DNA from: Thermodesulfobacteriota bacterium | GTDB lineage: Bacteria; Desulfobacterota_D; UBA1144; Nemesobacterales; Nemesobacteraceae | NCBI GenBank assembly: GCA_963667625.1 | Contig: OY763921.1 | Location: 802,241-866,240, forward strand | DNA: 64,000 nucleotides | Direction of reading: 5' to 3' | Shown: positions 11,090 to 34,037 of the stretch, one piece after another | Layout: each line of letters starts with the position of its first letter | Numbering within the stretch: the first letter of the stretch is position 1 | The notes under the pieces: model-generated | Told to the model about the DNA's origin: nothing | The model's input: the letters and a program-made list of their open reading frames with translations, nothing else | Databases searched by the model: none | Translations under genes and position numbers: made by a program

Positions 11090-12690
11090 TCCCGGGCGTC
11101 GAGCTCGTCCTTTAAGATCTTGTAGTCTATGCTGTCGACAAGAGCCTTCCAGCTTGCTTCCACTATGTTGTCGGAAACCCCCACCGTGCTCCACCTCTTC
11201 TCCCCGTCTCCCGATTCCACAAGCACCCTTACCACGGAATCGGTGCCGCCCGACCTTGACACTACTCTTACTCTGTAGTCGAGCAGCCGCAGGGTCTTGA
11301 GCCCGGGGAAGAATTTCTCAAGCGATTTCCTGAGTGCCCCGTCTATCGCGTTTACGGGACCGTTTCCCCTTGCCACGGTATATTCCGTGACGCCGTTTAC
11401 CTGAACCTCCGCGGTAGCCTCTGAGAGCGGCTCCTCGTCTCCTTCCCGCTTTTCGACCAGTGTCCGGGTGCTTTTGAGATAGAACCGTTTTTTGTAAGTA
11501 CCCAGGGTTTTTCTCACCAGCAGTTCAAAGGACGCGTCCGCCCCCTCGAATTCGTAACCCTGGTTCTCCAGAACCTTTAGCTCGTTCAGCACCTTGAGAA
11601 TTCTTTCGTCCTTGGGGTCTATGTCCACTCCCAGTTCCTGGGCCTTGTAGGCTATGTTGGCCCGGCCGGAGAGGTCAGAGACCAGCACCCGCCTCCTGTT
11701 GCCGACGCTCTGGGGCTCTACGTGCTCGTATGTATCTGAATTTTTCATGACGGCGCTTACGTGAATCCCTCCCTTGTGGGCGAAGGCGCTTTCGCCGACA
11801 AAGGCCTGCTTCTTGAGAGGTGGAAGATTTGTGAGTTCATGAATGAAATGGGACACGGAATAGAGTTTTTTCAGGTTCTCTGCAGAAAGGGAATCCATCC
11901 CGAGCTTTAAGGCGATATTCGGTATTATGGCGCAGAGATTGGCGTTTCCACACCGCTCCCCGTAGCCGTTCATGGTTCCCTGGACCTGGGACGCTCCCCC
12001 CCTTACCGCATAAAGCGTGTTGGCGACCCCGACTTCGCTGTCGTTATGGGTATGTATTCCTAGGCTCGGGTTATCGAACATGCCGTTAACTTCCCTTATG
12101 GTGCCCTCGACGTCCCATGGCATGGAGCCGCCGTTTGTGTCGCATAGAACGACCGTGTCGACTCCTGCCCCGTAGGCGGTTTCAAGAACCTTCGCTGAGT
12201 ATTCGGAGTTTCTCTTCCAGCCGTCAAAGAAATGCTCGGCGTCGAAAAACACCTTGTCCACATGGCGCTTGAGGTACTCGATCGAGTCGTGTACCAGTTC
12301 GAGGTTCTCTTCAAGTTCTATTTTGAGAGCTTCTGTGACCTGGAAGTCCCAGCTTTTCCCGACAATCGTCACAACCGGGGTTTCTGCCTCCAAAAGCGCC
12401 TGTATGCTTGCGTCTTCCTCGCAGCTTTTCCTGGCGCGTCTTGTGCTTCCGAAAGCCGCAACGCTCGCGTTTTTAAGCCCAAGTTTCTTCGCTTCCTCAA
12501 AATACCCCTTGTCTCTCTCGTTAGAACCGGGCCATCCGCCCTCGATGTAATGCACCCCGAGGTCATCCAGTCTTTGCGTTATCCGGATCTTGTCGTGTAT
12601 GGAAAAGGATATGTTTTCCCCCTGGGTTCCGTCGCGCAGGGTCACGTCGTATATTTCAACGGTTCTCGAATTACTCATCGGTTTTTCCAA
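11086..12690 (-). CDS. cimA: (R)-citramalate synthase / 2-isopropylmalate synthase family (LeuA-like, 534 aa; CimA-type length)
   Basis: The N-terminal VEIYDVTLRDGTQ catalytic motif, the HTHNDSEVGVANTL motif and a C-terminal LeuA-dimer/regulatory domain are present. CimA versus LeuA cannot be settled without phylogeny. Confidence 0.8.
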   Translation of the reverse strand: MEKPMSNSRTVEIYDVTLRDGTQGENISFSIHDKIRITQRLDDLGVHYIEGGWPGSNERDKGYFEEAKKLGLKNASVAAFGSTRRARKSCEEDASIQALLEAETPVVTIVGKSWDFQVTEALKIELEENLELVHDSIEYLKRHVDKVFFDAEHFFDGWKRNSEYSAKVLETAYGAGVDTVVLCDTNGGSMPWDVEGTIREVNGMFDNPSLGIHTHNDSEVGVANTLYAVRGGASQVQGTMNGYGERCGNANLCAIIPNIALKLGMDSLSAENLKKLYSVSHFIHELTNLPPLKKQAFVGESAFAHKGGIHVSAVMKNSDTYEHVEPQSVGNRRRVLVSDLSGRANIAYKAQELGVDIDPKDERILKVLNELKVLENQGYEFEGADASFELLVRKTLGTYKKRFYLKSTRTLVEKREGDEEPLSEATAEVQVNGVTEYTVARGNGPVNAIDGALRKSLEKFFPGLKTLRLLDYRVRVVSRSGGTDSVVRVLVESGDGEKRWSTVGVSDNIVEASWKALVDSIDYKILKDELDARD

Positions 12691-13909
12691 GATTAAAAGC
12701 GTCGTGAAGAGTCCTTACGGCGGTTTCCGTATCTTTTTCCTCAAGAACGCAGGAGATTTTTATTTCCGAAGTGCTTATCATCATAATGTTAATTTCCTCG
12801 TTCGCAAGCGCTTTGAACATGCGCGAAGCCACTCCGGAGTGGGTCTTCATCCCCACTCCCACCAGGGAGATCTTGGAGATAAGGTTGTCGGAGAGCACCT
12901 GCTTTGCTCCTAGCTCCCGGGCCATCTTCTCCGAGAGTTCTATTGATTTCTTGAAATCCGACTTGGGCACGGTGAACGTAAGGTCGGTAAACCCTTCCGT
13001 GCTCACGTTCTGAACGATCATGTCGACTACTACGTTCTCGTCCGCCAGAGACGAGAAAAGCTTGGCCGCTATGCCGGGCTGGTCGGGCACCTGGGTCACG
13101 GTGATTTTCGCCTGGTCCCTGTCGTAGGAGACTCCCGATACCACAACTTCTTCCATGGATTTCATAACTTTTTCCTCATCAAGGACCCACGTTCCCTCGT
13201 CCTCGGGCCTCGGAGTTGACTTAACATGTATAGGCACTTTAAATTTTTTTGCAAATTCCACCGCGCGGGCCTGAAGCACCTTTGAGCCCAAAGACGCCAT
13301 CTCAAGCATCTCGTCGTAGGAGATCTGGCTGAGTTTTCTTGCGTCGGGACAGACTTCTGGATCCGTGGTGTATACCCCGTCCACGTCATCCTTGTAGAGT
13401 TCGCACGCGTCGGCCCCCATCACGGCCGCGAGCGCCACCGCGGTCAGGTCGGAGCCTCCCCGCCCGAGCGTGGTGAGGTTGCCGTCCTCGTCAACTCCCT
13501 GGAATCCCGCTATGACGACCGCCTTTTTCTCCCCGAGGGCAACACGGACGTTCCTGTCGTCAATCGACTTTATCTTCGCCTTGGAGTAAATGTTGTCGGT
13601 GGTGATCCTTATCTGGTGTCCCTGGAAAGATATCGCATCCTCCCCGAGCGATTTTATCGTCATCGCCACAAGGCCGGAAGATACCTGTTCCCCGCTTGAG
13701 GTTATCACGTCAAACTCCCTTTCATCGGGGGGATCCATCACCTCTTTTGCGAGGCCGACCAGCCTGTCGGTTTCGCCCGCCATGGCGGAAACCACCGCTA
13801 TCACGTCGTTTTTCTTCTTTTTCGTTGCTATTATATGTTCGGCTACGCGCCTTATTTTTTCGATGCTAGCAACGCTTGTTCCGCCGTATTTCTGAACGAC
13901 AAGAGCCAT
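12671..13909 (-). CDS. lysC: Aspartate kinase (monofunctional, two C-terminal ACT domains)
   Basis: MALVVQKYGGTSVA matches the kinase N-terminus and the ACT repeats are present. The gene overlaps the cimA start by 20 bp. Confidence 0.9.
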   Translation of the reverse strand: MALVVQKYGGTSVASIEKIRRVAEHIIATKKKKNDVIAVVSAMAGETDRLVGLAKEVMDPPDEREFDVITSSGEQVSSGLVAMTIKSLGEDAISFQGHQIRITTDNIYSKAKIKSIDDRNVRVALGEKKAVVIAGFQGVDEDGNLTTLGRGGSDLTAVALAAVMGADACELYKDDVDGVYTTDPEVCPDARKLSQISYDEMLEMASLGSKVLQARAVEFAKKFKVPIHVKSTPRPEDEGTWVLDEEKVMKSMEEVVVSGVSYDRDQAKITVTQVPDQPGIAAKLFSSLADENVVVDMIVQNVSTEGFTDLTFTVPKSDFKKSIELSEKMARELGAKQVLSDNLISKISLVGVGMKTHSGVASRMFKALANEEINIMMISTSEIKISCVLEEKDTETAVRTLHDAFNLGKTDE

Positions 13910-21194: not shown

Positions 21195-22733
<1,539 letters not shown>

Positions 22734-22808
22734 TTCACGGAGATATCTGTCTTTTTTTCGCTCGCCATCTGCTTTTTATAAAAAAGTATTTGCGCTTATA
22801 AGGCAACG

Positions 22809-22885
<77 letters not shown>

Positions 22886-22888
22886 CTA

Positions 22889-22961
22889 GGGGGTGTAGCT
22901 CAGTTGGGAGAGCGCCTGCTTTGCAAGCAGGAGGTCGACGGTTCGAGCCCGTTCACCTCCA
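22889..22961 (+). tRNA. tRNA-Ala (anticodon TGC) with the G3:U70 identity pair; CCA not encoded
   Basis: GGGGGTGTAGCTCAGTTGGGAGAGCGCCTGCTTTGCAAGCAGGAGGTCGACGGTTCGAGCCCGTTCACCTCCA. Confidence 0.9.
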
Positions 22962-22998
22962 TAGAAGAAGAATTTTTGAATGCTTTTTTGATCTTTGA

Positions 22999-23018
22999 CA
23001 ACTGAATATAACGCTGAG
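22999..23018. repeat. 5' half of the 23S processing stem (pairs with 26059-26078)
   Basis: caactgaatataacgctgag is the perfect reverse complement of ctcagcgttatattcagttg at 26059-26078. Confidence 0.7.
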
Positions 23019-23064
23019 AAACAGAATTGATCGTGTTGTTAGTATTATCGAGGATTTTCATGCC

Positions 23065-26018
<2,954 letters not shown>

Positions 26019-26058
26019 GGCTTGAAAATTCTCGATACCAACACAACACACAATTTTT

Positions 26059-26078
26059 CTCAGCGTTATATTCAGTTG
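26059..26078. repeat. 3' half of the 23S processing stem
   Basis: See 22999-23018. The 20-bp perfect complementarity brackets the whole 23S, as expected for an RNase III processing stem. Confidence 0.7.
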
Positions 26079-26225
26079 CCAGAGGTCTTTTCCAAACTTG
26101 AGGGTTGCTTCTCTTTATGGAAGGAAGAGACTCTCGTTTAAATATTTTCTTAACAAAGTTCTTGACATATTGAAGCCTTTTGTGGTATTTTTACAAGCAA
26201 AGGTTTTCAAGGCCTTTTGAATTTA

Positions 26226-26255
26226 ATGTTCCTTAACTGTAGTTAAGGAACATTA
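26226..26255. repeat. Perfect palindrome (14-bp arms aatgttccttaact / agttaaggaacatt) about 200 bp downstream of the 23S
   Basis: Seen directly. A related half-site, ctacagttaaggaacac, recurs at 28224-28240. Confidence 0.6.
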
Positions 26256-26518
26256 AACTGGCTTTCCATCCGTCAGTTGTTTGATTTCCGGTTCTTAACT
26301 TCCAGTTTCAGATAGTTTGGCCTTCTGGAAGCCAACTCCTCCGTATTCCTTGGCAGCATTTATGCCTGTAATCAGATGATTACGATACGCTCAGCGCAGA
26401 ACGTTAATTTTCTGTGGACAGTTCCTTAGTAGAATCTGCTCCCTAAACTAAAAGCGCGACAACCGGTGTTACCCAGAAGTCGCGCTTGGTTTAACTAATC
26501 CTCTCTCTAGGATTGATT

Positions 26519-26960
26519 TTAGTTGCACGCCGCGTTAGTCGTGGCAATGGTCTGTATGGCGTTCAGCCTAGCTTGCGAAGTTCCTCCTGCGGAAATGTCA
26601 GCGATCGGTCTTTTTACAGCTGTCGATCCTGTTCCCGTGGTATTGATAAGCATTCCTGCATCGCTAATCGAAAGATTAACAGTAGTACCTACCACATAAA
26701 GGGTATCTCCCATAGGATCAAAATCCGAAACAGTATCTAGGCCAGTATCTAAGCCGAAAGAAAAGCAATCATTACCAGCTCCGCCAGTTAGTGTATCATT
26801 ACCAGCTCCGCCAGTTAGTGTATCATTACCAGCTCCGCCGATTAATTCATCGTTGCCTGCTCCACCGTCCAAGGTGTCTTCACCTTCGCCGCCGTCGAGA
26901 TCATCATCTCCGGCTCCACCAACAAGCATGTCATCGCCAGCTCCGCCGTCAAGAGTATCA
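26519..26960 (-). pseudogene. C-terminal fragment of an RTX/hemolysin-type calcium-binding repeat protein, N-terminally truncated at a compositional junction
   Basis: Repeated GGAGNDTLT/GGxGxDxL nonapeptides. The ORF's apparent N-terminus (26960-26995) is just the antisense of the neighbouring high-GC HTH gene. Confidence 0.55.
26768..26848. repeat. 27-bp tandem DNA repeats (about 3 units, then degenerate) encoding the RTX nonapeptide repeats
   Basis: atcattaccagctccgccagttagtgt appears twice exactly, followed by a diverged third copy. Confidence 0.8.
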
Positions 26961-26962
26961 AC

Positions 26963-27175
26963 ATGGATGTTATCCCGCTTGCGAAGCTGGCCCAAGAGCT
27001 GGACATAGATCGGTCCACACTCAGGAAGTGGGTAAGGCGGCAGGGCCTTGAATCCATGCTTGCCCGCTTCCCGGAAACCCGCGGCCAGCTGGCATTAGCC
27101 TTCACCCCCGAGCAAGCCGGGAAGGTCATCAAGGCGCGGCAAGATGAAGGCTACGGCCGAAATGGGGTCACGTGA
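26963..27175 (+). CDS. Small helix-turn-helix DNA-binding protein (70 aa) in the high-GC alien block
   Basis: [24 protein letters not shown] has the pattern of an HTH. GC content is much higher than in the surroundings. Confidence 0.45.
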
Positions 27176-27335
27176 ACCTATTAGCGGGGCGCGCTCACTC
27201 AAAATTGTGGCACCCCAGCGATATCAAAACCCCGCAACCCCCGTAGGGCAGGGGTCCCCGAACACGCCCGCGAAATCGTCCAGGCGGATCGGCCTGGGGA
27301 AAGCGCCCGAACGAAATCGGGGCGACAATCCGCTC

Positions 27336-28115
27336 TCAGAGCCCCAAGGGAGCACGGAGCACGAATTCGAGCCGGGTCTCTGACGGAATCTTGAGCTTGG
27401 TTCCCCTCGCCGCTGCCACGGCGATGCCCGTTCCGGCACCGACACCGGCACCAATCGCGGCACCTTTCTTGCCCCCGAAGATTCCTCCGATGACCGCCCC
27501 GCCGACGCCGCCGATTGCAGTGTTCCGAATCGTCTTGCGGCCTTTGCCTTCGCCTTGGAGTTCAGCGTAGTCCGTGGCCAGGTGATAGCTCCGCCCGTTC
27601 ACGGTAATGTCGTAAATCTTCAAGGCAACCTCATCGCTGCCTTTCAGTGCGCCGCTTTGCTCGACGCGCATCACCTGCACGGTGGCATCGGCATAGCGTG
27701 GGACCACAACCTGGCTGCCCACGACAATGGGATCGTCGATGCTCGCCCGGAAGCGTTCGCCGACTCCCGTAAGGTCGGCGTCGATCGAGTCAATCAGCCG
27801 AACCGTAATCAACGTCCCCGCCGGTACCGTGACGCCGGCCGGCGAGTGCGCCACTTGTCTTTGGACAGCTCTGGGGACTGGGGGAACTGCGGTCGGCGGC
27901 GGTGTTCCGAAACCAATCCCAGATACGTCCCCCACGGAATACGCTTGGACATTGCCGTCCGGCCCGATAAAGCGCACCGACCGAGCGTCACCACCAATGT
28001 AAGTTCCCTCGATAACGGTTCCGTTGTGGAGAATCAGTTGGTCCGCCAGTGTAGGACTGGCCAAGACCAGCAGCAAGTAGAATGAATGGACCAGCAGGAA
28101 GCGCATGCTTTTCAT
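27336..28115 (-). CDS. Secreted protein with a C-terminal glycine-zipper (Gly-zipper_Omp / Rick_17kDa-like) segment, 259 aa
   Basis: Signal peptide MKSMRFLLVHSFYLLLVLASPTLA. The C-terminal segment is GGVGGAVIGGIFGGKKGAAIGAGVGAGTGIAVAAA. The plus-strand ORFs in this region are antisense shadows of this gene. Confidence 0.5.
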   Translation of the reverse strand: MKSMRFLLVHSFYLLLVLASPTLADQLILHNGTVIEGTYIGGDARSVRFIGPDGNVQAYSVGDVSGIGFGTPPPTAVPPVPRAVQRQVAHSPAGVTVPAGTLITVRLIDSIDADLTGVGERFRASIDDPIVVGSQVVVPRYADATVQVMRVEQSGALKGSDEVALKIYDITVNGRSYHLATDYAELQGEGKGRKTIRNTAIGGVGGAVIGGIFGGKKGAAIGAGVGAGTGIAVAAARGTKLKIPSETRLEFVLRAPLGL

Positions 28116-28418
28116 CGTTGACCTCTTTGCGAATCGTCGCAGACACCATCATAACGGAAACGCGCCACGCACCGCCAGCCGGCCCAGCGGTTCGCTTGAC
28201 AGGCCCTCGTTAGGTATGCACAACTACAGTTAAGGAACACAGAAATTCCGCTCGTTAAGATTGAAAGTGCCGCTTCCGAGTCAGGGTGAACGTAGGAGTG
28301 TGGGCGTTGTGCCAATACTCGAAGAGCTATAGCCGTATTTATCCGCAGTTTTAGTAAAGTCTCGAAGCTCTGCCGCTGGGTACCGTGGCGCTTGGGTTGT
28401 ATCTCAGGTAAGCATCTT

Positions 28419-29498
28419 CTATCTTCCGTAACGTAGGCGAGCAACGGCATTACGCTCTGCAAGCTGATATTTTGCGTATCGGGCCGGCATCTGGGAAGAT
28501 TTCCAGCGGCCCGCTATCTGCATGTCGACAAGAGTAGCTCCGCCGACAGCCATGCTTTGCGCTGCGCCGACCCGTAGAGAATGGCCGCTTACTCCTTCTA
28601 TCCCGGCCTGCTGCGCTCTGGTTTTCAAAATGCGGCGTATGGATAAAGGGGACAGCGCTGTTTTTCCGACCAGGGATGTCTGGAGATTCCCGCGTGAAAC
28701 CCTGCGAAACAACGCACCGCTGCTCACCTTGCCAAACTGCATCCATGTTTTAATCCTGGCCATCGTTGGGTGCCCAAGGTAAAGAACAGTCCCTTTCCCC
28801 TCCTGGTCCGTCTTTGACCTGCGAATGTTGACCCGCCCGGAACCGTCAGCTTCTTCTGTAACGTCGCAGACAAGCAGTGCCGCCACCTCGGAAATCCTCA
28901 GCATGGCATCGGACATAAGTGATATTAAAGCCCCGTCCCGGATGCCCGTGAGAGAATCTGGATTGCTTAAGGCCAGGGCAACTATTTTTTCCGACTGCGT
29001 CCAGGTAATGCCGCGGGCCTGACCACGTCCTCGGTCCGCGCACCTGCGGCGGAATCCTTTTATTGCCGCGTCTGTGAGTCTGCCCACGGGAGATTCGCGT
29101 TCGCTGAGTTTTGCCATATAGGAAACCGCCGCTATTGCCATCTGGGCGGTTGCAGGAGCCTTGTCTTTGGTTTCCAGTGTCGCGATATAACGGGCAAGTG
29201 ACAGGTCGTTCAGTTTTTCCAGCAATAAGTCAACGGGCAGGGTTCCGTTGTTAATGCCCATAAACTCGCTGATCCGACGCAGAGATCCCCTGTAAGCCTT
29301 AAGCGTATTTTCTGATATGGATTCACTGACAAGATTTTTAAGGCTCTGTTCTATTTCGCCATTTGAAACTATTTCCGCACCTTTGCGGAAAACCGCAATC
29401 TCATCCGATACATGCTCGTCTTCTTCTCCCACACTTCCTCCGACCGATTCATTCGATTTCGCTACTTCTGATTCCTCACGCGAGTTTTGTTTTATCAT
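28419..29498 (-). CDS. Tyrosine-type site-specific recombinase / phage integrase family
   Basis: Catalytic residues seen in LRISE (Arg), GHSLRVGAA (His-x-x-Arg), AGRW (Arg) and PARYAKY (Tyr nucleophile). The N-terminal SAM-like domain has a core-binding-like fold. Confidence 0.85.
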   Translation of the reverse strand: MIKQNSREESEVAKSNESVGGSVGEEDEHVSDEIAVFRKGAEIVSNGEIEQSLKNLVSESISENTLKAYRGSLRRISEFMGINNGTLPVDLLLEKLNDLSLARYIATLETKDKAPATAQMAIAAVSYMAKLSERESPVGRLTDAAIKGFRRRCADRGRGQARGITWTQSEKIVALALSNPDSLTGIRDGALISLMSDAMLRISEVAALLVCDVTEEADGSGRVNIRRSKTDQEGKGTVLYLGHPTMARIKTWMQFGKVSSGALFRRVSRGNLQTSLVGKTALSPLSIRRILKTRAQQAGIEGVSGHSLRVGAAQSMAVGGATLVDMQIAGRWKSSQMPARYAKYQLAERNAVARLRYGR

Positions 29499-29835
29499 TT
29501 GGAACCTCCAGAGGCTTTCAAAAATCCTAACGTTTCCTAAGTAAAGAAATATGGCGACATATCATGCAACTGTATATTCCGACTGAGTTCGGACGCAGCC
29601 TCACTTTCAATTGGAATATGTCGTTTTGGAGTTTTCAAGACATCCGTCTGATTGAAACAGACAGCATGTATTCCGAGCGAGAGAAAATGCGAAATTATTC
29701 TTGCCTGGACAGGTTTACACGCGAGATTCCTTGAAAATGCTGTCAATCACGACAATACTTTTACGGTATGGGATGTAGAGATTCTCTGTTTTCAGGGAGC
29801 TTAAGATATTTAATTCTCTGAGGATAATATCTTGT

Positions 29836-31059
29836 ATGAATGCGGCAGAACTGATTGGAACAATAAATGAAGGGGAGAACTCTTACGTTGAGTTCAAACG
29901 GGATGACGGACAGGCAAACTCACTTGCCAAGGAGATGTCCGCATTGCTTAATCTTGAAGGAGGGCTGATTCTTCTCGGAGTTGAAGACGACGGGTCAGTC
30001 TCAGGCCTTGTCCGAAGTCGCGGCGAAGTGGAACTATGGGTTATGAACATCGCCCGGCAGAATCTTCAGCCAAGCTTTATCCCTCAATGGAGTTCCGTTA
30101 CGCTTGAAGGTGGCAAGGTTGTCGGAATTATTCGCCTGCCTCAGGACAGTTTTGGCAAACCCTACAAAGCCAGGCATGGTTCGACTTGGACCACTTATGT
30201 CAGGGTTGGAAGCACGTCACGGGCTGCTACGCGGGAAGAGGAAGGACGTCTCTATCAGTCTGCTGGGGTTGTTCGGTACGATATAAAGCCTGTAGTCGGA
30301 ACAGATTTCGAAGATCTTGATTTTAATCTGCTTGACAACTATTTCCGTAAGATATTAAAAAGAAAAGAGGTTCCGGAACTTGAGGATGCGGAGAGCTGGC
30401 GGCAGTTACTGATAAACGTTGATCTGCTTGCGATATCTGATAAGACTGTCTACACAACGGTTGCCAGTCTGCTGCTTTTCGGACGAAATCCCAACAGACG
30501 TATTCCGCAGGCTGGAGTTACGGCAACCGCATTTCCTGGGAATGAAAAGGACTATGATACTACCGATGAGGAAATCATAAGAGGGCCTCTTGTGTCTGAG
30601 TTTTCCGGAAGCGGCAGGGTTCTTGAGAAGGGTGTCATTGACAGGGCCGTGGACTTCGTGCTGAGAAACATGGGAACTACAGCCTGGCTTGAAGGAGGCC
30701 GAAGGCTAAGAAAGAAGGCTTTTCCCGATGATGCTATCAGAGAGTCGATAGTGAATGCGGTTGCGCATCGCGATTACACTATTGTGGGTACTGACATTGA
30801 ACTCTCTTTGTACTCGGACCGCATTGAAGTCATTTCCCCTGGCAGGCTCCCGAATGGCGTAACGGTGGATAAAATGAAAGATGGTCTGCGCGCGGCAAGA
30901 AACGAAATGCTGAAGGAAATACTGCGTGACTATGGTTACGTGGAGCATCTGGGTATGGGAGTTCGAAACCGCATTATACGGTCAATGATCACTCACAACG
31001 GCAAGGTTCCGGATCTTATTGAGGAAGGGGAACGTTTTATTGTCCGTCTGTGGAAATAA
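29836..31059 (+). CDS. Schlafen-like AlbA_2 (divergent AAA, PF04326) + HATPase_c_4 (RecG-C-terminal-like) protein; putative regulator or defence ATPase
   Basis: The N-terminus E..YVEFK...LLNLEGGLILLGVEDDG matches the AlbA_2 pattern. The C-terminus ESIVNAVAHRDYTIVGTDIELSLYSDRIEVISPGRLPNG matches HATPase_c_4. Confidence 0.7.
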   Translation: MNAAELIGTINEGENSYVEFKRDDGQANSLAKEMSALLNLEGGLILLGVEDDGSVSGLVRSRGEVELWVMNIARQNLQPSFIPQWSSVTLEGGKVVGIIRLPQDSFGKPYKARHGSTWTTYVRVGSTSRAATREEEGRLYQSAGVVRYDIKPVVGTDFEDLDFNLLDNYFRKILKRKEVPELEDAESWRQLLINVDLLAISDKTVYTTVASLLLFGRNPNRRIPQAGVTATAFPGNEKDYDTTDEEIIRGPLVSEFSGSGRVLEKGVIDRAVDFVLRNMGTTAWLEGGRRLRKKAFPDDAIRESIVNAVAHRDYTIVGTDIELSLYSDRIEVISPGRLPNGVTVDKMKDGLRAARNEMLKEILRDYGYVEHLGMGVRNRIIRSMITHNGKVPDLIEEGERFIVRLWK

Positions 31060-31092
31060 AAACCTGCTTAGATTGCGTTTTCACACAGATGG

Positions 31093-31230
31093 TTAGTGCG
31101 TATTTTCTGCGGAGTGTGGAAATCTCGGTTCAATAACACGGAGGAACTGTTTTCTTATTTCTTCTGATTTGGCTCCAAGATCAACGGTTGCGAAACGTAT
31201 CTCGTGTCCTTGGATCACCACAGACTTCAT
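31093..31230 (-). CDS. 45-aa ORF (MKSVVIQGHEIRFATVDLGAKSEEIRKQFLRVIEPRFPHSAENTH) translationally coupled to the antitoxin; no recognisable toxin fold
   Basis: ATGA overlap with the upstream gene. Too short for the ORF track. Translated by hand. Confidence 0.25.
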   Translation of the reverse strand: MKSVVIQGHEIRFATVDLGAKSEEIRKQFLRVIEPRFPHSAENTH

Positions 31231-31502
31231 TCTTCTTCATCAATGAACGGGATTTTACGTCTTGACTCACGGCGGTTGGGGACCGGGAGGTTTGTCCCCC
31301 GTGGCATGTTCTCAATTAGCCACTGCCCCATAGGTTTTTTAGATGTCTCCTTGGCTTGCCATAACTTTGCAGGCACAAGAACGAAGGATTTCTTTATTCC
31401 GATATACTGAGGACCTTCAGTCTCAGCGAGCCTCAGTATTTCGGAAAGTTTCGCTTTGGCCTCTGCTACGGTCCAGACGCGTTTGGTTCTCGGAACTGTC
31501 AT
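31227..31502 (-). CDS. Phd/YefM-type type II antitoxin-like protein (91 aa)
   Basis: The N-terminus TVAEAKAKLSEIL...KKSFVLVP matches the Phd/YefM pattern. Its stop overlaps the next ORF's start (ATGA). Confidence 0.5.
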   Translation of the reverse strand: MTVPRTKRVWTVAEAKAKLSEILRLAETEGPQYIGIKKSFVLVPAKLWQAKETSKKPMGQWLIENMPRGTNLPVPNRRESRRKIPFIDEEE

Positions 31503-31604
31503 GTTTGCTTTTCCTCCGAAGAAAATGCGTATCGGTTTTTTACAAGCCTGTGTGCGTGCTGATTTTCGTTATCACAGCAAATAGTTTACAATATAAAACC
31601 TGCC

Positions 31605-33086
31605 ATGAATATCTCCGACCTCCTTACTCATCTGGGAGCGATGGCGATTGCTGCCTTCGTGTTGTTCTACTATCTGACCAGGGAAAAAAGCAGGCGTGGG
31701 TCCGTCGAAACCGAGCTGTCTGTTATCAGAACCGAACTGGAAGAGTCAAAAAGCAAGAGTGCCCTACTGGAAGGGGAGCTTAAAGAATCGGTCGAGGTTG
31801 CAAGTGCTCTTAACGCCGAGAAAGCCTCCCTTGAATCCAGCTTAAAAGAAAAGATGACCGCTCTTGCGGACCGCGATTCCAGGATTTCCGGGTTTGAAAG
31901 GCAGGTGAGGGAACTTACTTCTCAGGTCACCGAGAAAGAAAGCCTTCTTTCGAGGCTCAGTACGACCATAGAGCAGGAAAGAAAAGGTTTTGAGGAAAAA
32001 CTGGCCATCTTGGATGAAGCGAAAAAAAGACTCGGAGACGAATTCGAGAACCTCGGAAACAGGATTTTCGAGGATACGACCAAGAAATTCACCGACAAGA
32101 ACAAGACGGACATGGAGACCCTGCTGAATCCCCTCCGCGAGCAGATAAAGGATTTCGAGAAAAAGGTTACAGACACCCACAAGGATGCGAGCAGTGACAT
32201 GGCTTCCCTAAAAGCCCACATAGAGAACCTCAAGAATCTGGGCGAGCAGATGAGCCGCGAAGCCGTTAATCTCACTACCGCCCTCAAGGGAGAGTCGCAG
32301 ACCCAGGGCGCCTGGGGAGAAATAGTCCTTGAGAGGGCACTTGAGATGTCGGGACTGTCCGAGGGCAGGGAGTATCATTCACAGCCGAGCTACAAGGGTG
32401 GGGACGGCAACACACTGAGACCCGACGTGATAGTCCATCTCCCCGAGGGAAAAGACGTCGTGATCGACTCCAAGGTCTCGCTCACCGCTTACGAGAGATA
32501 CATGTCCTGCGAGAATGAGGAGGAGAGGGGGGATTACCTAAGGCAGCATGTTCTCTCTTTTCGAAACCACATAAAGGAACTCAGTTCCAAGGGATACCAG
32601 GGTATTCCCGGAATCACGAGCCTTAACTACGTCTTGATGTTCGTTCCGCTTGAATCCGCCTTCATGCTTGCCATAGAGACCGAGGGGGATCTTTACTCCG
32701 AGGCCTTTGAGAAGAACGTGATAATCGTTTGCCCCTCGACTCTTCTTGCGACGCTTAGAACCATACACAGCATCTGGCAGTTTGAGTACCAGAACGCAAA
32801 CGCCAGGGAAATAGCCGAAGGCGCCGGCAGGATGTACGACAAGTTCGTGACCTTCACTGAGCATCTCGCTGAGGTCGGAAAGCGCATAGAACAGTCCGAT
32901 CAGGCCTACCAGAAGGCAATGAGCAGCCTTCGCGACGGCAAGGGCAATCTCGTGAAAAGAGCCTTGGATCTCAAGGAGTTAGGAATAAAAACCTCGAAGG
33001 AGCTCCCCCCTGATTTCTCGGAGAGATCCGAACCCTCGGGGTACGCGGTTTCTCCCGGCAAGGAGACGGACGAGGGGTTACAGTGA
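31605..33086 (+). CDS. rmuC: DNA recombination protein RmuC
   Basis: N-terminal TM segment, long coiled coil, and a C-terminal RmuC nuclease-like domain (GAWGEIVLERALEMSGL...VIDSKVSL). Confidence 0.85.
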   Translation: MNISDLLTHLGAMAIAAFVLFYYLTREKSRRGSVETELSVIRTELEESKSKSALLEGELKESVEVASALNAEKASLESSLKEKMTALADRDSRISGFERQVRELTSQVTEKESLLSRLSTTIEQERKGFEEKLAILDEAKKRLGDEFENLGNRIFEDTTKKFTDKNKTDMETLLNPLREQIKDFEKKVTDTHKDASSDMASLKAHIENLKNLGEQMSREAVNLTTALKGESQTQGAWGEIVLERALEMSGLSEGREYHSQPSYKGGDGNTLRPDVIVHLPEGKDVVIDSKVSLTAYERYMSCENEEERGDYLRQHVLSFRNHIKELSSKGYQGIPGITSLNYVLMFVPLESAFMLAIETEGDLYSEAFEKNVIIVCPSTLLATLRTIHSIWQFEYQNANAREIAEGAGRMYDKFVTFTEHLAEVGKRIEQSDQAYQKAMSSLRDGKGNLVKRALDLKELGIKTSKELPPDFSERSEPSGYAVSPGKETDEGLQ

Positions 33087-33165
33087 TCCGTCGTGTTTAG
33101 AAAAAGGAGGGGAAATCGTGTACGATTCCACTTCCTAAATTCGATATCTAGAGAGGTAGCATAGA

Positions 33166-33966
33166 TTGTTTGAGAATTCTATTAAAGGTAGCTGGGCGCT
33201 GGTGCTTGGTTCTTCAAGCGGCTTCGGGGAAGCCTGCAGCCTTGAGCTTGCGCGCCGGGGAATGAATATTTTCGGCGTGCACCTTGACCGCAGGGGCACG
33301 ATGGCGAAGGTGGAGGGCATAGTTGACGAGATAAAGAGCACGGGAAGCGATGTAAGGTTCTACAACGTAAATGTCGCCGATGCGGAAAAAAGACAGGAAG
33401 TCATTGCGGACATAAAGGACGTGGTGCAGAAGGATGGCTCCCGGGTAAAGGTAATGATACATTCCGTCGCCTTCGGGACCCTGAAGCGCTACGTTGCGGA
33501 TGAACGCAGAGACGTTCTAAACAGCAAGAACATCGACATGACCCTGGACGTGATGGCCCACAGCATCGTTTACTGGGCGCAGGATCTTGTTATGGAGAGA
33601 ATAATGGGCGAGGGCGGGAGAATATTTGCCATGACGAGTTCAGGGAGTCACAGGGTATGGCCTACTTACGGCGCCGTATCGGCCGCCAAGGCGGCCATAG
33701 AGGCCCACATACGCCAGCTTGCCGTCGAGCTCGCTCCAAGCGGGATTACCGCAAACTCAATAATGGCCGGGGTAACGGACACTCCCGCGCTGAGAAAGAT
33801 TCCGGGAAATGAGAAGCTCGTTGACCACGCTCTCGCGGCGAATCCTTCGGGAAGACTGACGACACCGGAAGACGTGGCAAAAGCCATTGCGCTTCTCTCC
33901 CTTGACGAAGCCTCCTGGATCACGGGCAACCTGATAGGGGTTGACGGCGGGGAAGATCTTGTTTGA
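33166..33966 (+). CDS. SDR-family oxidoreductase, enoyl-ACP-reductase-like (FabI/FabL-like Y-x6-K active site), TTG start
   Basis: Glycine-rich loop LVLGSSSGFGEA. Active-site motif TYGAVSAAK (Y-x6-K). ITANSIMAGVTDTP resembles the FabI NAISAGPIRT motif. Confidence 0.6.
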   Translation: MFENSIKGSWALVLGSSSGFGEACSLELARRGMNIFGVHLDRRGTMAKVEGIVDEIKSTGSDVRFYNVNVADAEKRQEVIADIKDVVQKDGSRVKVMIHSVAFGTLKRYVADERRDVLNSKNIDMTLDVMAHSIVYWAQDLVMERIMGEGGRIFAMTSSGSHRVWPTYGAVSAAKAAIEAHIRQLAVELAPSGITANSIMAGVTDTPALRKIPGNEKLVDHALAANPSGRLTTPEDVAKAIALLSLDEASWITGNLIGVDGGEDLV

Positions 33967-34037
33967 TAGGACCGCTTGGTCCGAATCTGTTGAAGGGAAC
34001 CTTGTCTTACAGGTCTTATTAGTATAAAGTATAAATT

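Follow-up and report, generated by a model that had tools for sequence, protein, structure and literature searches.

An acidobacterial surface-protein gene in a probable recombinase-driven invertible segment of sponge-associated Ca. Dadabacteria

Main finding

Close to the end of an rRNA operon in a sponge-associated Ca. Dadabacteria we found a GC-rich block that is probably acidobacterial DNA (Bryobacterales / Versatilivoraceae-like), with a foreign surface-protein gene inside what is most likely a recombinase-driven invertible cassette. The course of events that we propose would start with the horizontal gain of 26962-28221 by the Dadabacteria lineage from Acidobacteriota in the same sponge host. 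This DNA, whose cargo is a single intact gene coding for a secreted envelope protein, would have entered by illegitimate recombination, not by integrase-mediated integration. It now lies within a segment of ~2 kb (about 26245-28221) that has the end of the rRNA operon on one side and a resident recombinase on the other. The segment, bounded by lox-like 18-nt inverted repeats, has undergone inversion through a crossover within these repeats; the neighbouring Cre-like recombinase would catalyse the inversion, which in turn may change the expression of the 259-aa gene. The transfer itself is a clean example of the gene flow to be expected between unrelated symbionts in one sponge host. What the locus adds is its setting: the lox-like inverted repeats have demonstrably recombined, and a conserved Cre-like recombinase is encoded next to them.

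The window referred to below is the whole stretch of 64,000 nt that was analysed. The following features are relevant:

23069..26016, + strand: 23S rRNA, the end of a 16S-tRNAIle-tRNAAla-23S operon and the fixed left flank (Rfam gathering-threshold matches)
26074..28412, no strand: the whole variable insert of 2,339 nt (blastn against L005, L006 and L007)
26162..26191, + strand: promoter-like element that faces the segment from just beyond site L; TTGACA-18-TATTTT with TG in front (best of the scan, 10/12)
26222..26257, no strand: site L, a perfect 17+17-nt palindrome of lox-like architecture with core TGTTCCTTAA-CTGTAG-TTAAGGAACA (repeat search; 18-nt arm at 26227-26244)
26519..26961, - strand: RTX pseudogene (calcium-binding repeats) of which the 3' part remains, cut by the block at 26961/26962 (Pfam HemolysinCabind 1.4e-19; in-frame stops upstream)
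26962..28221, no strand: GC-rich foreign block (segment GC, trinucleotide signature, 26961/2 breakpoint common to L008)
26963..27175, + strand: 70-aa HTH ORF, in which the ~65-aa domain of an HTH family is complete (sub-threshold Pfam HTH matches; phmmer)
27302..28171, - strand: module common to acidobacterial genomes, comprising the gene flanked by about 56 nt on its upstream and about 37 nt on its downstream side (blastn against L002-L004 and L009-L012)
27336..28115, - strand: gene for a 259-aa secreted protein with a Sec signal peptide, a small beta-barrel, a Pro-rich linker, a VirB10/TrbI-like beta-barrel and a glycine-zipper insert near the C-terminus
28222..28239, no strand: site R, the 18-nt copy AACTACAGTTAAGGAACA (18/18 complementary to 26227-26244; inversion crossover point in L051 and L130)
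28419..29498, - strand: resident Cre-like tyrosine recombinase of 359 aa (Pfam Phage_integrase 7e-14; PDB relatives)

Three Dadabacteria strains (L005, L006 and L007; 16S 99.4% identical) are without 26074-28412 and have 83 unrelated nt instead; these are referred to as the empty-site strains.

Inverted repeats and the inversion

The 18-nt repeat has three matches in the window, where 0.01 would be expected, and it is kept in all occupied strains. A scan of metagenome contigs with the 18-mer gave 73 further matches, none of them homologous to the locus and thus chance matches. The known loxP site consists of 13-nt arms around an 8-nt spacer. Site L likewise has inverted arms around a short spacer with only a central asymmetry, although its sequence is unrelated to loxP and the second site, site R, has one conserved arm. 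More specifically, site R has one good arm plus the spacer, and its inner arm is degenerate. In this it is similar to the sfx sites of the R64 shufflon (recombinase Rci), in which one conserved arm and the spacer are paired with a non-conserved arm. The spacers of both sites co-vary, being CTGTAG/CTACAG in the window and CTGTAT/ATACAG in L008. The palindrome of site L was also considered as a terminator of the rRNA operon and rejected: the hairpin is strong (dG -23.7, z -6), but lacks a U-tract.

Two orientations of the segment were recovered, from different samples: orientation A in the window, L001, L008, L052 and L053, and orientation B in L051 and L130. In the latter two, which are independent contigs, the sequence of the window runs from 28227 to 27250 and from 26791 to 26227 between unchanged flanks, with the crossover in the repeats. 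The full palindrome is shifted to the right side, as is predicted for a crossover in the spacer. L051 and L130 have the same internal deletion, and the left site of L051 has in addition a 6-nt deletion. Orientation B is thus known as one allele, and one historical inversion, possibly now locked, would explain the data. L052, a contig of 1,947 nt, was examined as a candidate invertible segment cut at both repeats, and discarded as such, since its sequence stays collinear across site R and breaks off at an IS-like insertion.

Short inverted repeats that adjoin a tyrosine recombinase, together with surface-protein cargo, are likewise found in tyrosine-recombinase inversion systems that have the gene within the segment or asymmetric sites: Rci/sfx, the surface-antigen inversions of Mycoplasma/Ureaplasma, pneumococcal PsrA/hsdS and the gut 'invertons'. 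The Dadabacteria locus differs in that there is a single cassette without alternative gene ends, situated directly downstream of the 23S rRNA gene. Moreover, its cargo consists of recently acquired foreign DNA and pseudogene debris, and its orientations are known between samples. Tyrosine-recombinase inversion systems are common in host-associated bacteria (PMC11892184, PMC7672463, PMC7096588, PMC3047005).

The alternative that survives best, although we think it clearly less likely than a recombinase-driven event, is that the inversion happened once, by general recombination (through RecA or short homology), between 18-nt repeats that are there by chance or duplication, with an unrelated recombinase and no switch. 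In that case the recombinase might have been left behind by, for example, the variable defence island on its right. The fact that a single inverted allele is known, which has a deletion and a damaged site, fits such an event, as do the persistence of the recombinase in empty-site strains that lack the sites and the character of the region as a rearrangement hot-spot. Against it, 18 nt is very short for homologous recombination. Furthermore, the sites show the core architecture of tyrosine-recombinase targets (inverted arms and a 6-8-nt spacer) at no more than 180 nt from a Cre-like gene, the spacers have changed in concert in L008, and the repeats were kept in every occupied strain. On this basis we infer that the neighbouring recombinase probably catalyses the inversion at site L and site R.

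The resident recombinase

The recombinase scores 52.4 bits against Pfam Phage_integrase (cut-off 27.1), and its best PDB relatives are all Cre (3e-12; the alignment runs over residues 103-355 and covers the catalytic domain and, in part, the N-terminal one; 23% identity). Upon alignment to Cre, the R-K-H-R-W-Y set is intact (R201, K229, H306, R309, W332 and Y341), opposite R173, K201, H289, R292, W315 and Y324 of Cre. The protein therefore has the same catalytic set as Cre of phage P1, including the Cre-type Trp, whereas its gene is chromosomal and resident in Dadabacteria. A further difference with Cre/loxP is that the sites are inverted and hence would drive inversion instead of circularisation or dimer resolution. 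The recombinase gene has a host-like GC content (0.53), is connected to a graded series of Dadabacteria-type homologues (92 down to 62%) and is intact in the empty-site strains (93% nucleotide identity). Since the empty-site strains have kept it, the recombinase must have another role or another target.

The locus was also considered as an integron and this reading was abandoned. The XerA/'integron integrase' model gives the recombinase a weak, sub-threshold score (57 versus 220 bits), the variable DNA is located 3' of the recombinase gene, and the repeat search revealed no repeated attC-like hairpins bounding the pieces of the insert.

A promoter-like element and a possible switch

The promoter-like element outside site L is a consensus match in AT-rich DNA and is kept in the window, L001, L008 and L051. 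In the inverted form, this element is followed after about 170 nt by the 259-aa gene, which then has the same direction as the rRNA operon. In the form found in the window the gene is downstream of, and co-directional with, the recombinase gene, and no terminator-like site was found between the two. From this arrangement we infer that the orientation of the segment may matter for the expression of the 259-aa gene. As the gene has retained part of its own upstream region, including an RBS and a TATGAT box, it may nevertheless be expressed in either orientation. To our knowledge, no inversion systems have been described in Dadabacteria. An active system would then be, as far as we know, the first inversion switch described in this group, and it would mean that an animal symbiont can bring surface-protein genes under phase-variable expression soon after acquiring them.

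A more far-reaching interpretation, which has only a small chance of being correct, is that the resident recombinase and its lox-like sites constitute a capture-and-flip platform. Such a platform would repeatedly take up foreign DNA of co-resident sponge symbionts and toggle the captured gene by inversion relative to a fixed outward promoter and read-through from the rRNA operon. The captured DNA would then comprise the acidobacterial gene, the RTX fragment and, in another strain, the DruA gene. If true, the locus would resemble an integron, but with a single cassette and working by inversion, and this in a candidate phylum that is not known to show phase variation.

The insertion site

The insert is a mosaic of pieces with a GC content of 0.40, 0.49 and 0.61, and its middle varies between strains. 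The junctions are identical in L001, L008, L052 and L053, and L051 and L130 have the junctions of the inverted form. The RTX remnant differs from that of L001 by an indel of one 27-nt repeat unit; in L008 a frameshifted DruA pseudogene takes its place. That the neighbour of the breakpoint is not the same in both strains suggests a decaying hot-spot of illegitimate recombination and argues against integrase-mediated integration. Only the first 24 nt of the 83-nt empty allele match the L051/L008 alleles. A recombination-site relic was sought in the same allele and dismissed, as the look-alike 'TGTTCCT...TTAAGG' is at noise level. On the side of the operon, no 5S gene was detected after the 23S gene at E<=1 in 25900-29900.

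The earlier note, which was made from the sequence of the window, had suggested that the block was acquired via the adjacent tyrosine integrase. That this integrase arrived with the block, or integrated it as a small integrative element, is improbable in our view. The idea is prompted by a tyrosine recombinase at 300 nt, by the 18-nt repeat that adjoins the right edge of the block and by a 16/18 direct repeat. However, that direct repeat exists only because site L is a palindrome; the perfect 18-nt repeats are inverted, not direct, and lie off the insert ends at 26074 and 28412. In addition, the rearrangement that is actually observed is an inversion, the insert is a mosaic, and the recombinase, with its host-like GC content and its series of Dadabacteria homologues, is equally resident and intact at the empty sites. 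As an integration event, the suggestion is therefore not supported.

Composition of the block

The segment 26962-28221 (1,260 nt) has a GC content of 61-64%, compared with a mean of 50.3% for the window, and forms the maximum of the window with sharp edges. The edges at 26962 and about 28221 were set by alignment to related strains. Over the range 26960-28120, for which the earlier note had claimed a far higher GC content than elsewhere by eye, the computed value is 61.4% (the standard deviation across 1160-nt windows is 4.0%), and the ten 1160-nt windows with the highest GC content all fall inside it. Every sub-segment of the block is between 0.61 and 0.64 and both flanks are at 0.49. The 160-nt non-coding spacer in the block, at 0.637, has the top intergenic value of the window (host intergenic regions: 0.34-0.555).

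The trinucleotide distance between block and host is 0.060, with a maximum of 0.048 among 273 host segments, and that between the block and the acidobacterial flanks is 0.022. The possibility that the GC profile would turn out unexceptional once computed, which had been named as a potential refutation, is countered by the computed GC profile. The third-position bias noted for both genes is present: their GC3 values of 0.70 and 0.69 are only just above the highest value among host genes, 0.688 (host mean 0.572). For the 259-aa gene, a GC content of 0.579 is expected under host codon usage and 0.614 is observed. Amino-acid composition explains about two-thirds of its GC excess, and the residual excess of +0.035 compares with a largest value of +0.021 among the host genes.

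Acidobacterial origin and transfer

The family of the 259-aa protein yielded 2,257 matches. All 42 genome loci that carry it belong to Acidobacteriota and none to Dadabacteria, so that the 'proteobacterial flavour' perceived earlier turns out to be acidobacterial. The recommended BLAST comparison of the block did retrieve donor-type copies: the closest acidobacterial copies of the module are 92-94% identical at the nucleotide level (97.3% over a partial 514 nt) and reside in loci of 60-64% GC. They include named Bryobacterales and Ca. Versatilivorator MAGs, and the flanks of L003 and L004 are of Bryobacterales. The gene itself is 60-62% GC everywhere, and the acidobacterial gene is multi-copy and IS-flanked. 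One acidobacterial copy was found on a 4.86-Mb contig of the same sample as L001, which is a sister strain of Dadabacteria. An NJ tree based on a codon alignment places the Dadabacteria copies among those of Acidobacteria, as a clade that is shallow and at the tips. The identity of the recipient follows from the housekeeping proteins of the window, which cluster at >=90% identity with proteins of named Ca. Dadabacteria MAGs.

Taken together, composition, phylogenetic nesting, the patchy distribution among strains and co-resident donors give good support to a horizontal gain of the block from a high-GC donor. The remainder of the block, namely 26962-27301 (340 nt with the HTH ORF and spacer) and 28172-28221 (50 nt), gave no match in the acidobacterial loci or viral contigs. 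L008 has some ~165 nt of GC-rich DNA in addition. Considering these 340 nt and 50 nt without an acidobacterial match, the exact donor is outside the sampled genomes.

With respect to timing, the block is 99.4% identical between Dadabacteria strains, compared with 93-97% for the backbone (ITS, 23S, recombinase and intergenic DNA; 16S 99.2%), and is therefore younger than the split of these strains. The proposal of a 'very recent' transfer holds in this relative sense; it does not hold with respect to the sampled full-length donor copies, as dS between the Dadabacteria copy and every one of these is 0.10-0.14.

Very unlikely, given the above, is a native gene that owes its GC content to a protein rich in Gly, Ala, Pro and Arg, or a transfer in the direction from Dadabacteria to Acidobacteria. 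The contribution of amino-acid composition to the GC excess, and a GC3 merely at the top of the host range, would agree with this. Such readings are contradicted by the GC content of the spacer, by a codon-level excess above that of every host gene and by trinucleotides that match the acidobacterial flanks. They also conflict with the absence of the gene from sister strains, and with a family that is deep and broad in Acidobacteriota and has no Dadabacteria among its genome matches, the Dadabacteria clade being a shallow tip in the tree. The chimeric assembly that was offered earlier as an alternative, i.e. a high-GC acidobacterial read or contig mis-joined into a Dadabacteria contig, is barely conceivable: a 92-94% identical copy does occur on another contig of the metagenome that holds sister strain L001, but the same junctions are present in five further contigs from different samples and assemblers, including long circular-named ones, the Dadabacteria copies form a clade of their own at 5-7% divergence from any acidobacterial copy, the acidobacterial homology extends no more than 60 nt beyond the gene although the GC-rich DNA goes on, and the 18-nt repeat is shorter than the k-mers of assemblers.

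Lateral gene transfer across phyla has been inferred in MAGs from coral-reef demosponges (PMC8163846). The present transfer likewise crosses phyla, between co-resident symbionts of high-microbial-abundance sponges, with surface/envelope cargo and IS-associated donor copies. It differs in its resolution at a single locus, which extends to the donor clade, the recipient strains that have or lack the insert, exact breakpoints and relative timing, and in its landing site, a recombinase-flanked invertible segment by an rRNA operon. A literature search returned nothing on 'Versatilivorator', nor on Dadabacteria in combination with Bryobacterales.

The 259-aa secreted protein

The C-terminal beta-barrel of the protein qualifies as TrbI/VirB10 (PF03743) on the basis of its fold; at the level of sequence the protein scores 15.6 bits against PF03743 (threshold 35), and several relatives with 60-69% identity carry precomputed PF03743 matches. 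VirB10/TrbI of type IV secretion systems has an N-terminal TM anchor, whereas the 259-aa protein is a stand-alone protein with a cleavable signal peptide. No T4SS genes were found beside the gene in any of the loci examined, whether of Dadabacteria or of Acidobacteria.

The signal peptide and the glycine zipper that had been described earlier are both present. The GxxxG-rich zipper, GGVGGAVIGGIFGGKKGAAIGAGVGAGTG, is plainly visible; the score against Pfam Gly-zipper_YMGG (PF13441) is 27.7 bits, just below the gathering threshold of 28.9, and one relative (P0002) has a precomputed match to this model. The zipper is shared with YMGG-like glycine-zipper proteins (PF13441; e.g. small proteobacterial outer-membrane lipoproteins), but here it is an insert in a larger two-domain protein, which belongs to an acidobacterial family and has no lipobox. 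The assignment as an outer-membrane lipoprotein was withdrawn: there is no cysteine in the whole sequence and hence no lipobox Cys, so the protein is not a lipoprotein. We read the cleavage region, TLA/DQ, as probably of the signal-peptidase I type. The annotation is thus corrected to an acidobacterial protein with a VirB10-like fold that is no lipoprotein. Within Dadabacteria, the gene of L008 shows six non-synonymous and no synonymous changes, and the block gene would not clearly seem to be under purifying selection.

The 70-aa HTH ORF

The HTH ORF is deleted in L051 and L130 and is therefore dispensable, and no match was found in the acidobacterial loci or viral contigs. It was initially considered an orphan on the basis of a word-index search (2 matches), which was overturned by an exhaustive phmmer search that yielded 105 relatives. 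A second candidate explanation, that the ORF is the C-terminus of the DruA gene of L008, was rejected as an accidental in-frame read-through, the DruA domain stopping about 55 codons earlier. The relatives are either stand-alone (66-83 aa) or form the N-terminus of proteins of ~175 aa, and the HTH domain that was recognised in the earlier note is real.

Composition and limits of the GC-rich block

Positions 26960-28120 have a GC content of 61.4%, against 50.3% for the window. Every one of the ten highest-ranking 1160-nt windows is located here (SD across windows of this length 4.0%), so that the GC rise above 60% that the earlier note had judged by eye is real and marks the maximum of the window. 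When related strains are compared, the true limits of the block are found at 26962-28221 (1,260 nt), its left edge lying 950 nt downstream of the rRNA operon. The features of the region are:

21195-26016, rRNA operon (16S-tRNAIle-tRNAAla-23S)
26162-26191, promoter-like element, TTGACA-18-TATTTT with TG, just outside site L and pointing inward
26222-26257, site L, perfect 17+17-nt palindrome just after the 23S gene, core TGTTCCTTAA-CTGTAG-TTAAGGAACA
26519-26961, 3' remnant of an RTX calcium-binding-repeat gene, in 27-nt (9-codon) tandem units
26963-27175, plus strand, HTH ORF, 70 aa
27336-28115, minus strand, 259-aa gene
28222-28239, site R, one site-L arm plus spacer (18 nt), 100% complementary
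28419-29498, minus strand, tyrosine recombinase gene, 359 aa
L008 (related contig) 12300-13545, frameshifted DruA/DUF4338-domain pseudogene in place of window 26574-26961 (90-aa and 326-aa ORFs, GC 0.53)

No 5S gene was found after the 23S gene or elsewhere in the 64-kb window.

Within the block, GC is 0.61 in the HTH ORF, 0.64 in the 160-nt non-coding spacer, 0.61 in the 259-aa gene and 0.61 in the 106 nt upstream of it, while the flanking DNA is at 0.49 on either side. The third-position G/C bias reported for both ORFs is present but weak, the values of 0.70 and 0.69 lying barely past the host maximum of 0.688 (host mean 0.572). Re-encoding the 259-aa gene with host codon usage gave a predicted GC of 0.579, and around two-thirds of its GC excess is therefore due to amino-acid composition. 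The residual codon-level excess (+0.035 to +0.041) exceeds that of every host gene (maximum +0.021), and no other intergenic DNA in the window is as GC-rich as the spacer (host intergenic range 0.34-0.555). Judged by trinucleotide signature, none of 273 host segments departs from the host as far as the block does, and the block is close to the DNA that flanks the acidobacterial copies; GC and trinucleotide profiles thus both mark it as atypical.

Origin of the 259-aa gene

High-microbial-abundance sponges typically harbour both Dadabacteria and Acidobacteriota as symbionts. Housekeeping proteins encoded in the window share clusters, at 90% identity or more, with proteins named 'Candidatus Dadabacteria bacterium', and the proteins of the window itself map to contigs of 1.8-2.4 Mb. 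The way the contigs are named is consistent with the long-read sponge metagenomes assembled by metaMDBG in PMC12648040, and a related contig (L051, JGI) carries the name IrcVar, which denotes a metagenome of Ircinia variabilis. For the 259-aa protein there are more than 2,000 relatives. In a scan of one genome per species all 42 loci were acidobacterial (Bryobacterales, Terriglobia, Vicinamibacterales, Ca. Versatilivorator), and two further copies have Bryobacterales flanks, as judged by named cluster mates. With 42 of 42 loci in Acidobacteriota and no proteobacterial hit, the 'proteobacterial flavour' first ascribed to the block has to be dropped. The closest copies lie in surroundings of 60-64% GC, where the gene itself (60-62%) is compositionally at home. 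One of them, 92-94% identical in nucleotides depending on the alignment, is found on a high-GC contig of 4.86 Mb (L002), whose sample also yielded L001, a sister Dadabacteria contig. This copy is 99.1% identical to the one in Ca. Versatilivorator OZ242296.1.

DNA homology to acidobacterial genomes is limited to 27302-28171, which comprises the gene, 56 nt upstream (with RBS and TATGAT box) and around 37 nt downstream. Identity is 92-94% for this module (blastn) and 93.7-94.8% for the coding region (codon alignment), with 97.3% over the 514 nt available from donor MAG APA_bin_29. In the acidobacterial loci the gene always adjoins transposase genes or fragments (IS66, IS1595, DDE_Tnp_1), and it is multi-copy: Bryobacterales OZ242259.1 has two loci, one a tandem partial triplication (L010 5957-8068, where the equivalent of window 27338-27943 is present three times) and the other a full copy (L011).

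In the codon alignment the Dadabacteria copies constitute a shallow clade nested among acidobacterial copies, while sequences from Terriglobia and Bryobacterales that are more distant fall outside. The full-length acidobacterial copies nearest to them are at a dS of 0.10-0.14, with dN/dS around 0.3. The nesting argues for a transfer from Acidobacteriota to Dadabacteria, and together with the GC content of the donor loci and the foreign composition it bears out the proposed horizontal acquisition from a high-GC donor. For the remaining 390 nt of the block no match was found in anything sampled, which places the actual donor, or its context, outside the collections. Lateral transfer across phyla is already established for sponge symbionts (PMC8163846), so that the transfer as first stated is an ordinary, well-resolved instance of it.

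Predicted products of the block

The 259-aa protein begins with a Sec-type signal peptide and contains a glycine zipper, which at 27.7 bits stays just under the Pfam threshold of 28.9. Both features had been recognized before; the assignment as a proteobacterial outer-membrane lipoprotein does not hold, as the protein lacks cysteine. An AlphaFold model built from 50 relatives contains two confident beta domains (residues 24-67 and ~95-176), the Pro-rich linker and the zipper being poorly predicted.

The HTH ORF had appeared to be an orphan in a word-index search (2 hits), which was overturned by an exhaustive phmmer search. The 105 relatives recovered share a ~65-aa HTH domain with it, either stand-alone (66-83 aa) or N-terminal in proteins of ~175 aa; one of the latter weakly matches T5orf172. 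On this basis the ORF is plausibly a small DNA-binding gene. Relatives were found neither in the acidobacterial loci searched nor in viral contigs. The ORF is missing from two natural variants.

Presence, age and assembly of the insert

In three Dadabacteria contigs (L005-L007; 16S 99.4% identical) the site is empty, 83 nt replacing window 26074-28412. Contig L008 has 26074-26573 and 26962-28412 in common with the window, has the DruA pseudogene (1,079 nt) in place of the RTX repeats, and its GC-rich part extends ~165 nt further to the left. This pattern shows that 26961/26962 is a true breakpoint, at which the foreign DNA of the window is truncated.

That the block might be a chimeric join in a metagenome bin, as the earlier note allowed, is ruled out by identical junctions across samples and assemblers: apart from a single SNP and one RTX repeat unit of 27 nt, L001 equals the window across 26000-29000, and the same junctions recur in L008, L052 and L053. 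L008 and the window show 7 differences over 1,154 nt of the block (99.4% identity), against identities of 95.6% for the ITS, 97.2% for the 23S, 97.2% for the recombinase, 92.9% for intergenic DNA and 99.2% for the 16S. The common ancestor of the block is thus younger than the strain split, which suggests that the block spread between strains. Relative to any sampled donor the acquisition is still not 'very recent', given the dS to full-length copies.

All six Dadabacteria copies preserve an intact 259-aa ORF. Between L008 (11360-12139) and the window there are six non-synonymous and no synonymous changes, clustered in the N-terminal domain and linker (I40V, D53A, A58T, P78S, P79Q, V137M); this could reflect relaxed or diversifying selection, the numbers being too small to decide. 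The ~300 nt between this gene and the recombinase gene (28116-28412) are ~80% identical, with indels, a hypervariable stretch around site R between the 99.4%-identical block and the 97.2%-identical recombinase.

The RTX remnant may also be foreign, as its GC3 of 0.38 is well below the host mean; at 26768-26794 the window has one repeat unit more than the near-identical L001. The DruA ORF of L008 continues across GC-rich DNA into the frame of the HTH ORF, and a 35%-identical DruA gene adjoins an IS66 transposase in L002. A mosaic of this kind, made up of pieces that are unrelated and partly decayed and differing between strains in its middle, is suggestive of illegitimate recombination at a hot-spot.

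A resident Cre-like recombinase and an invertible segment

The tyrosine recombinase had been put forward as the vehicle of acquisition. Together with the Schlafen/AlbA_2 gene beyond, it keeps its position beside the rRNA operon in every strain, the empty-site ones included. Its GC is host-like and its homologues constitute a graded series from 92% to 62% identity, one of them named for Dadabacteria. All this speaks against import via this enzyme, which is resident and did not arrive with the block. The only solved relative is Cre (E 3e-12), with which R-K-H-R-W-Y all align, the Cre-type tryptophan included, and phage matches were confined to P1-type Cre and one Microcystis phage protein.

Site R is the exact right edge of the block, 180 nt from the recombinase gene; the window contains three matches to the repeat, with 0.01 expected by chance. 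Two contigs, L051 and independently L130 (run ERR3887490), have the stretch between the repeats inverted, whereas both outer flanks keep their orientation: L051 562-1548 corresponds to window 28227->27250 and 1547-2111 to 26791->26227. The full palindrome is now on the right, as a spacer-internal crossover predicts. Mis-assembly through the 18-nt repeat is unlikely, since the repeat is shorter than assembler k-mers. Moreover, the spacers are CTGTAT/ATACAG in L008 and CTGTAG/CTACAG in the window, a change at one site being matched by its complement at the other, which is what recombination between the two sites would be expected to produce.

Four alleles conserve the promoter-like element, which is a pattern match only. 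Inversion places the start of the 259-aa gene ~170 nt downstream of this element and gives the gene the direction of the rRNA operon; in the window form the gene follows the recombinase gene, and no terminator-like site was found between the two. An active switch fits the data no better than a single past inversion that is now perhaps locked: the inverted form is known as one allele only, with an internal deletion (window 26792-27249, HTH ORF included), and the left site of L051 is damaged by a 6-nt deletion. In the empty-site strains, moreover, the recombinase has no sites like L and R. Recombinase-flanked invertible DNA is of a kind already known, and this locus would be a further example, combining a Cre-like enzyme, one full site and one half site, foreign cargo and a position beside the rRNA operon in Dadabacteria.

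In some strains (L127, L128, L129, L052) an IS/MITE-like element with terminal inverted repeat CAGAGTTCAATCTTGATTGTCGCG and an apparent 4-nt CAAC target duplication lies in the last recombinase codons (window ~28442-28445), which results in a 369-aa ORF variant; short-read assemblies break there. Where the site is empty, ~140 nt separate the end of the recombinase gene from the 23S gene. To its right (29500-34000; L001, L005-L008 and L051 compared) the DNA is strain-variable, divergence rising from <0.3% to ~5% at 29500. An insert of McrBC type, 4 kb long, is present in L001 at window 31232, and the interval from the Schlafen/AlbA_2 gene to RmuC contains PIN, Transposase_mut or small ORFs in other strains, so that the region looks like a defence-island hot-spot.
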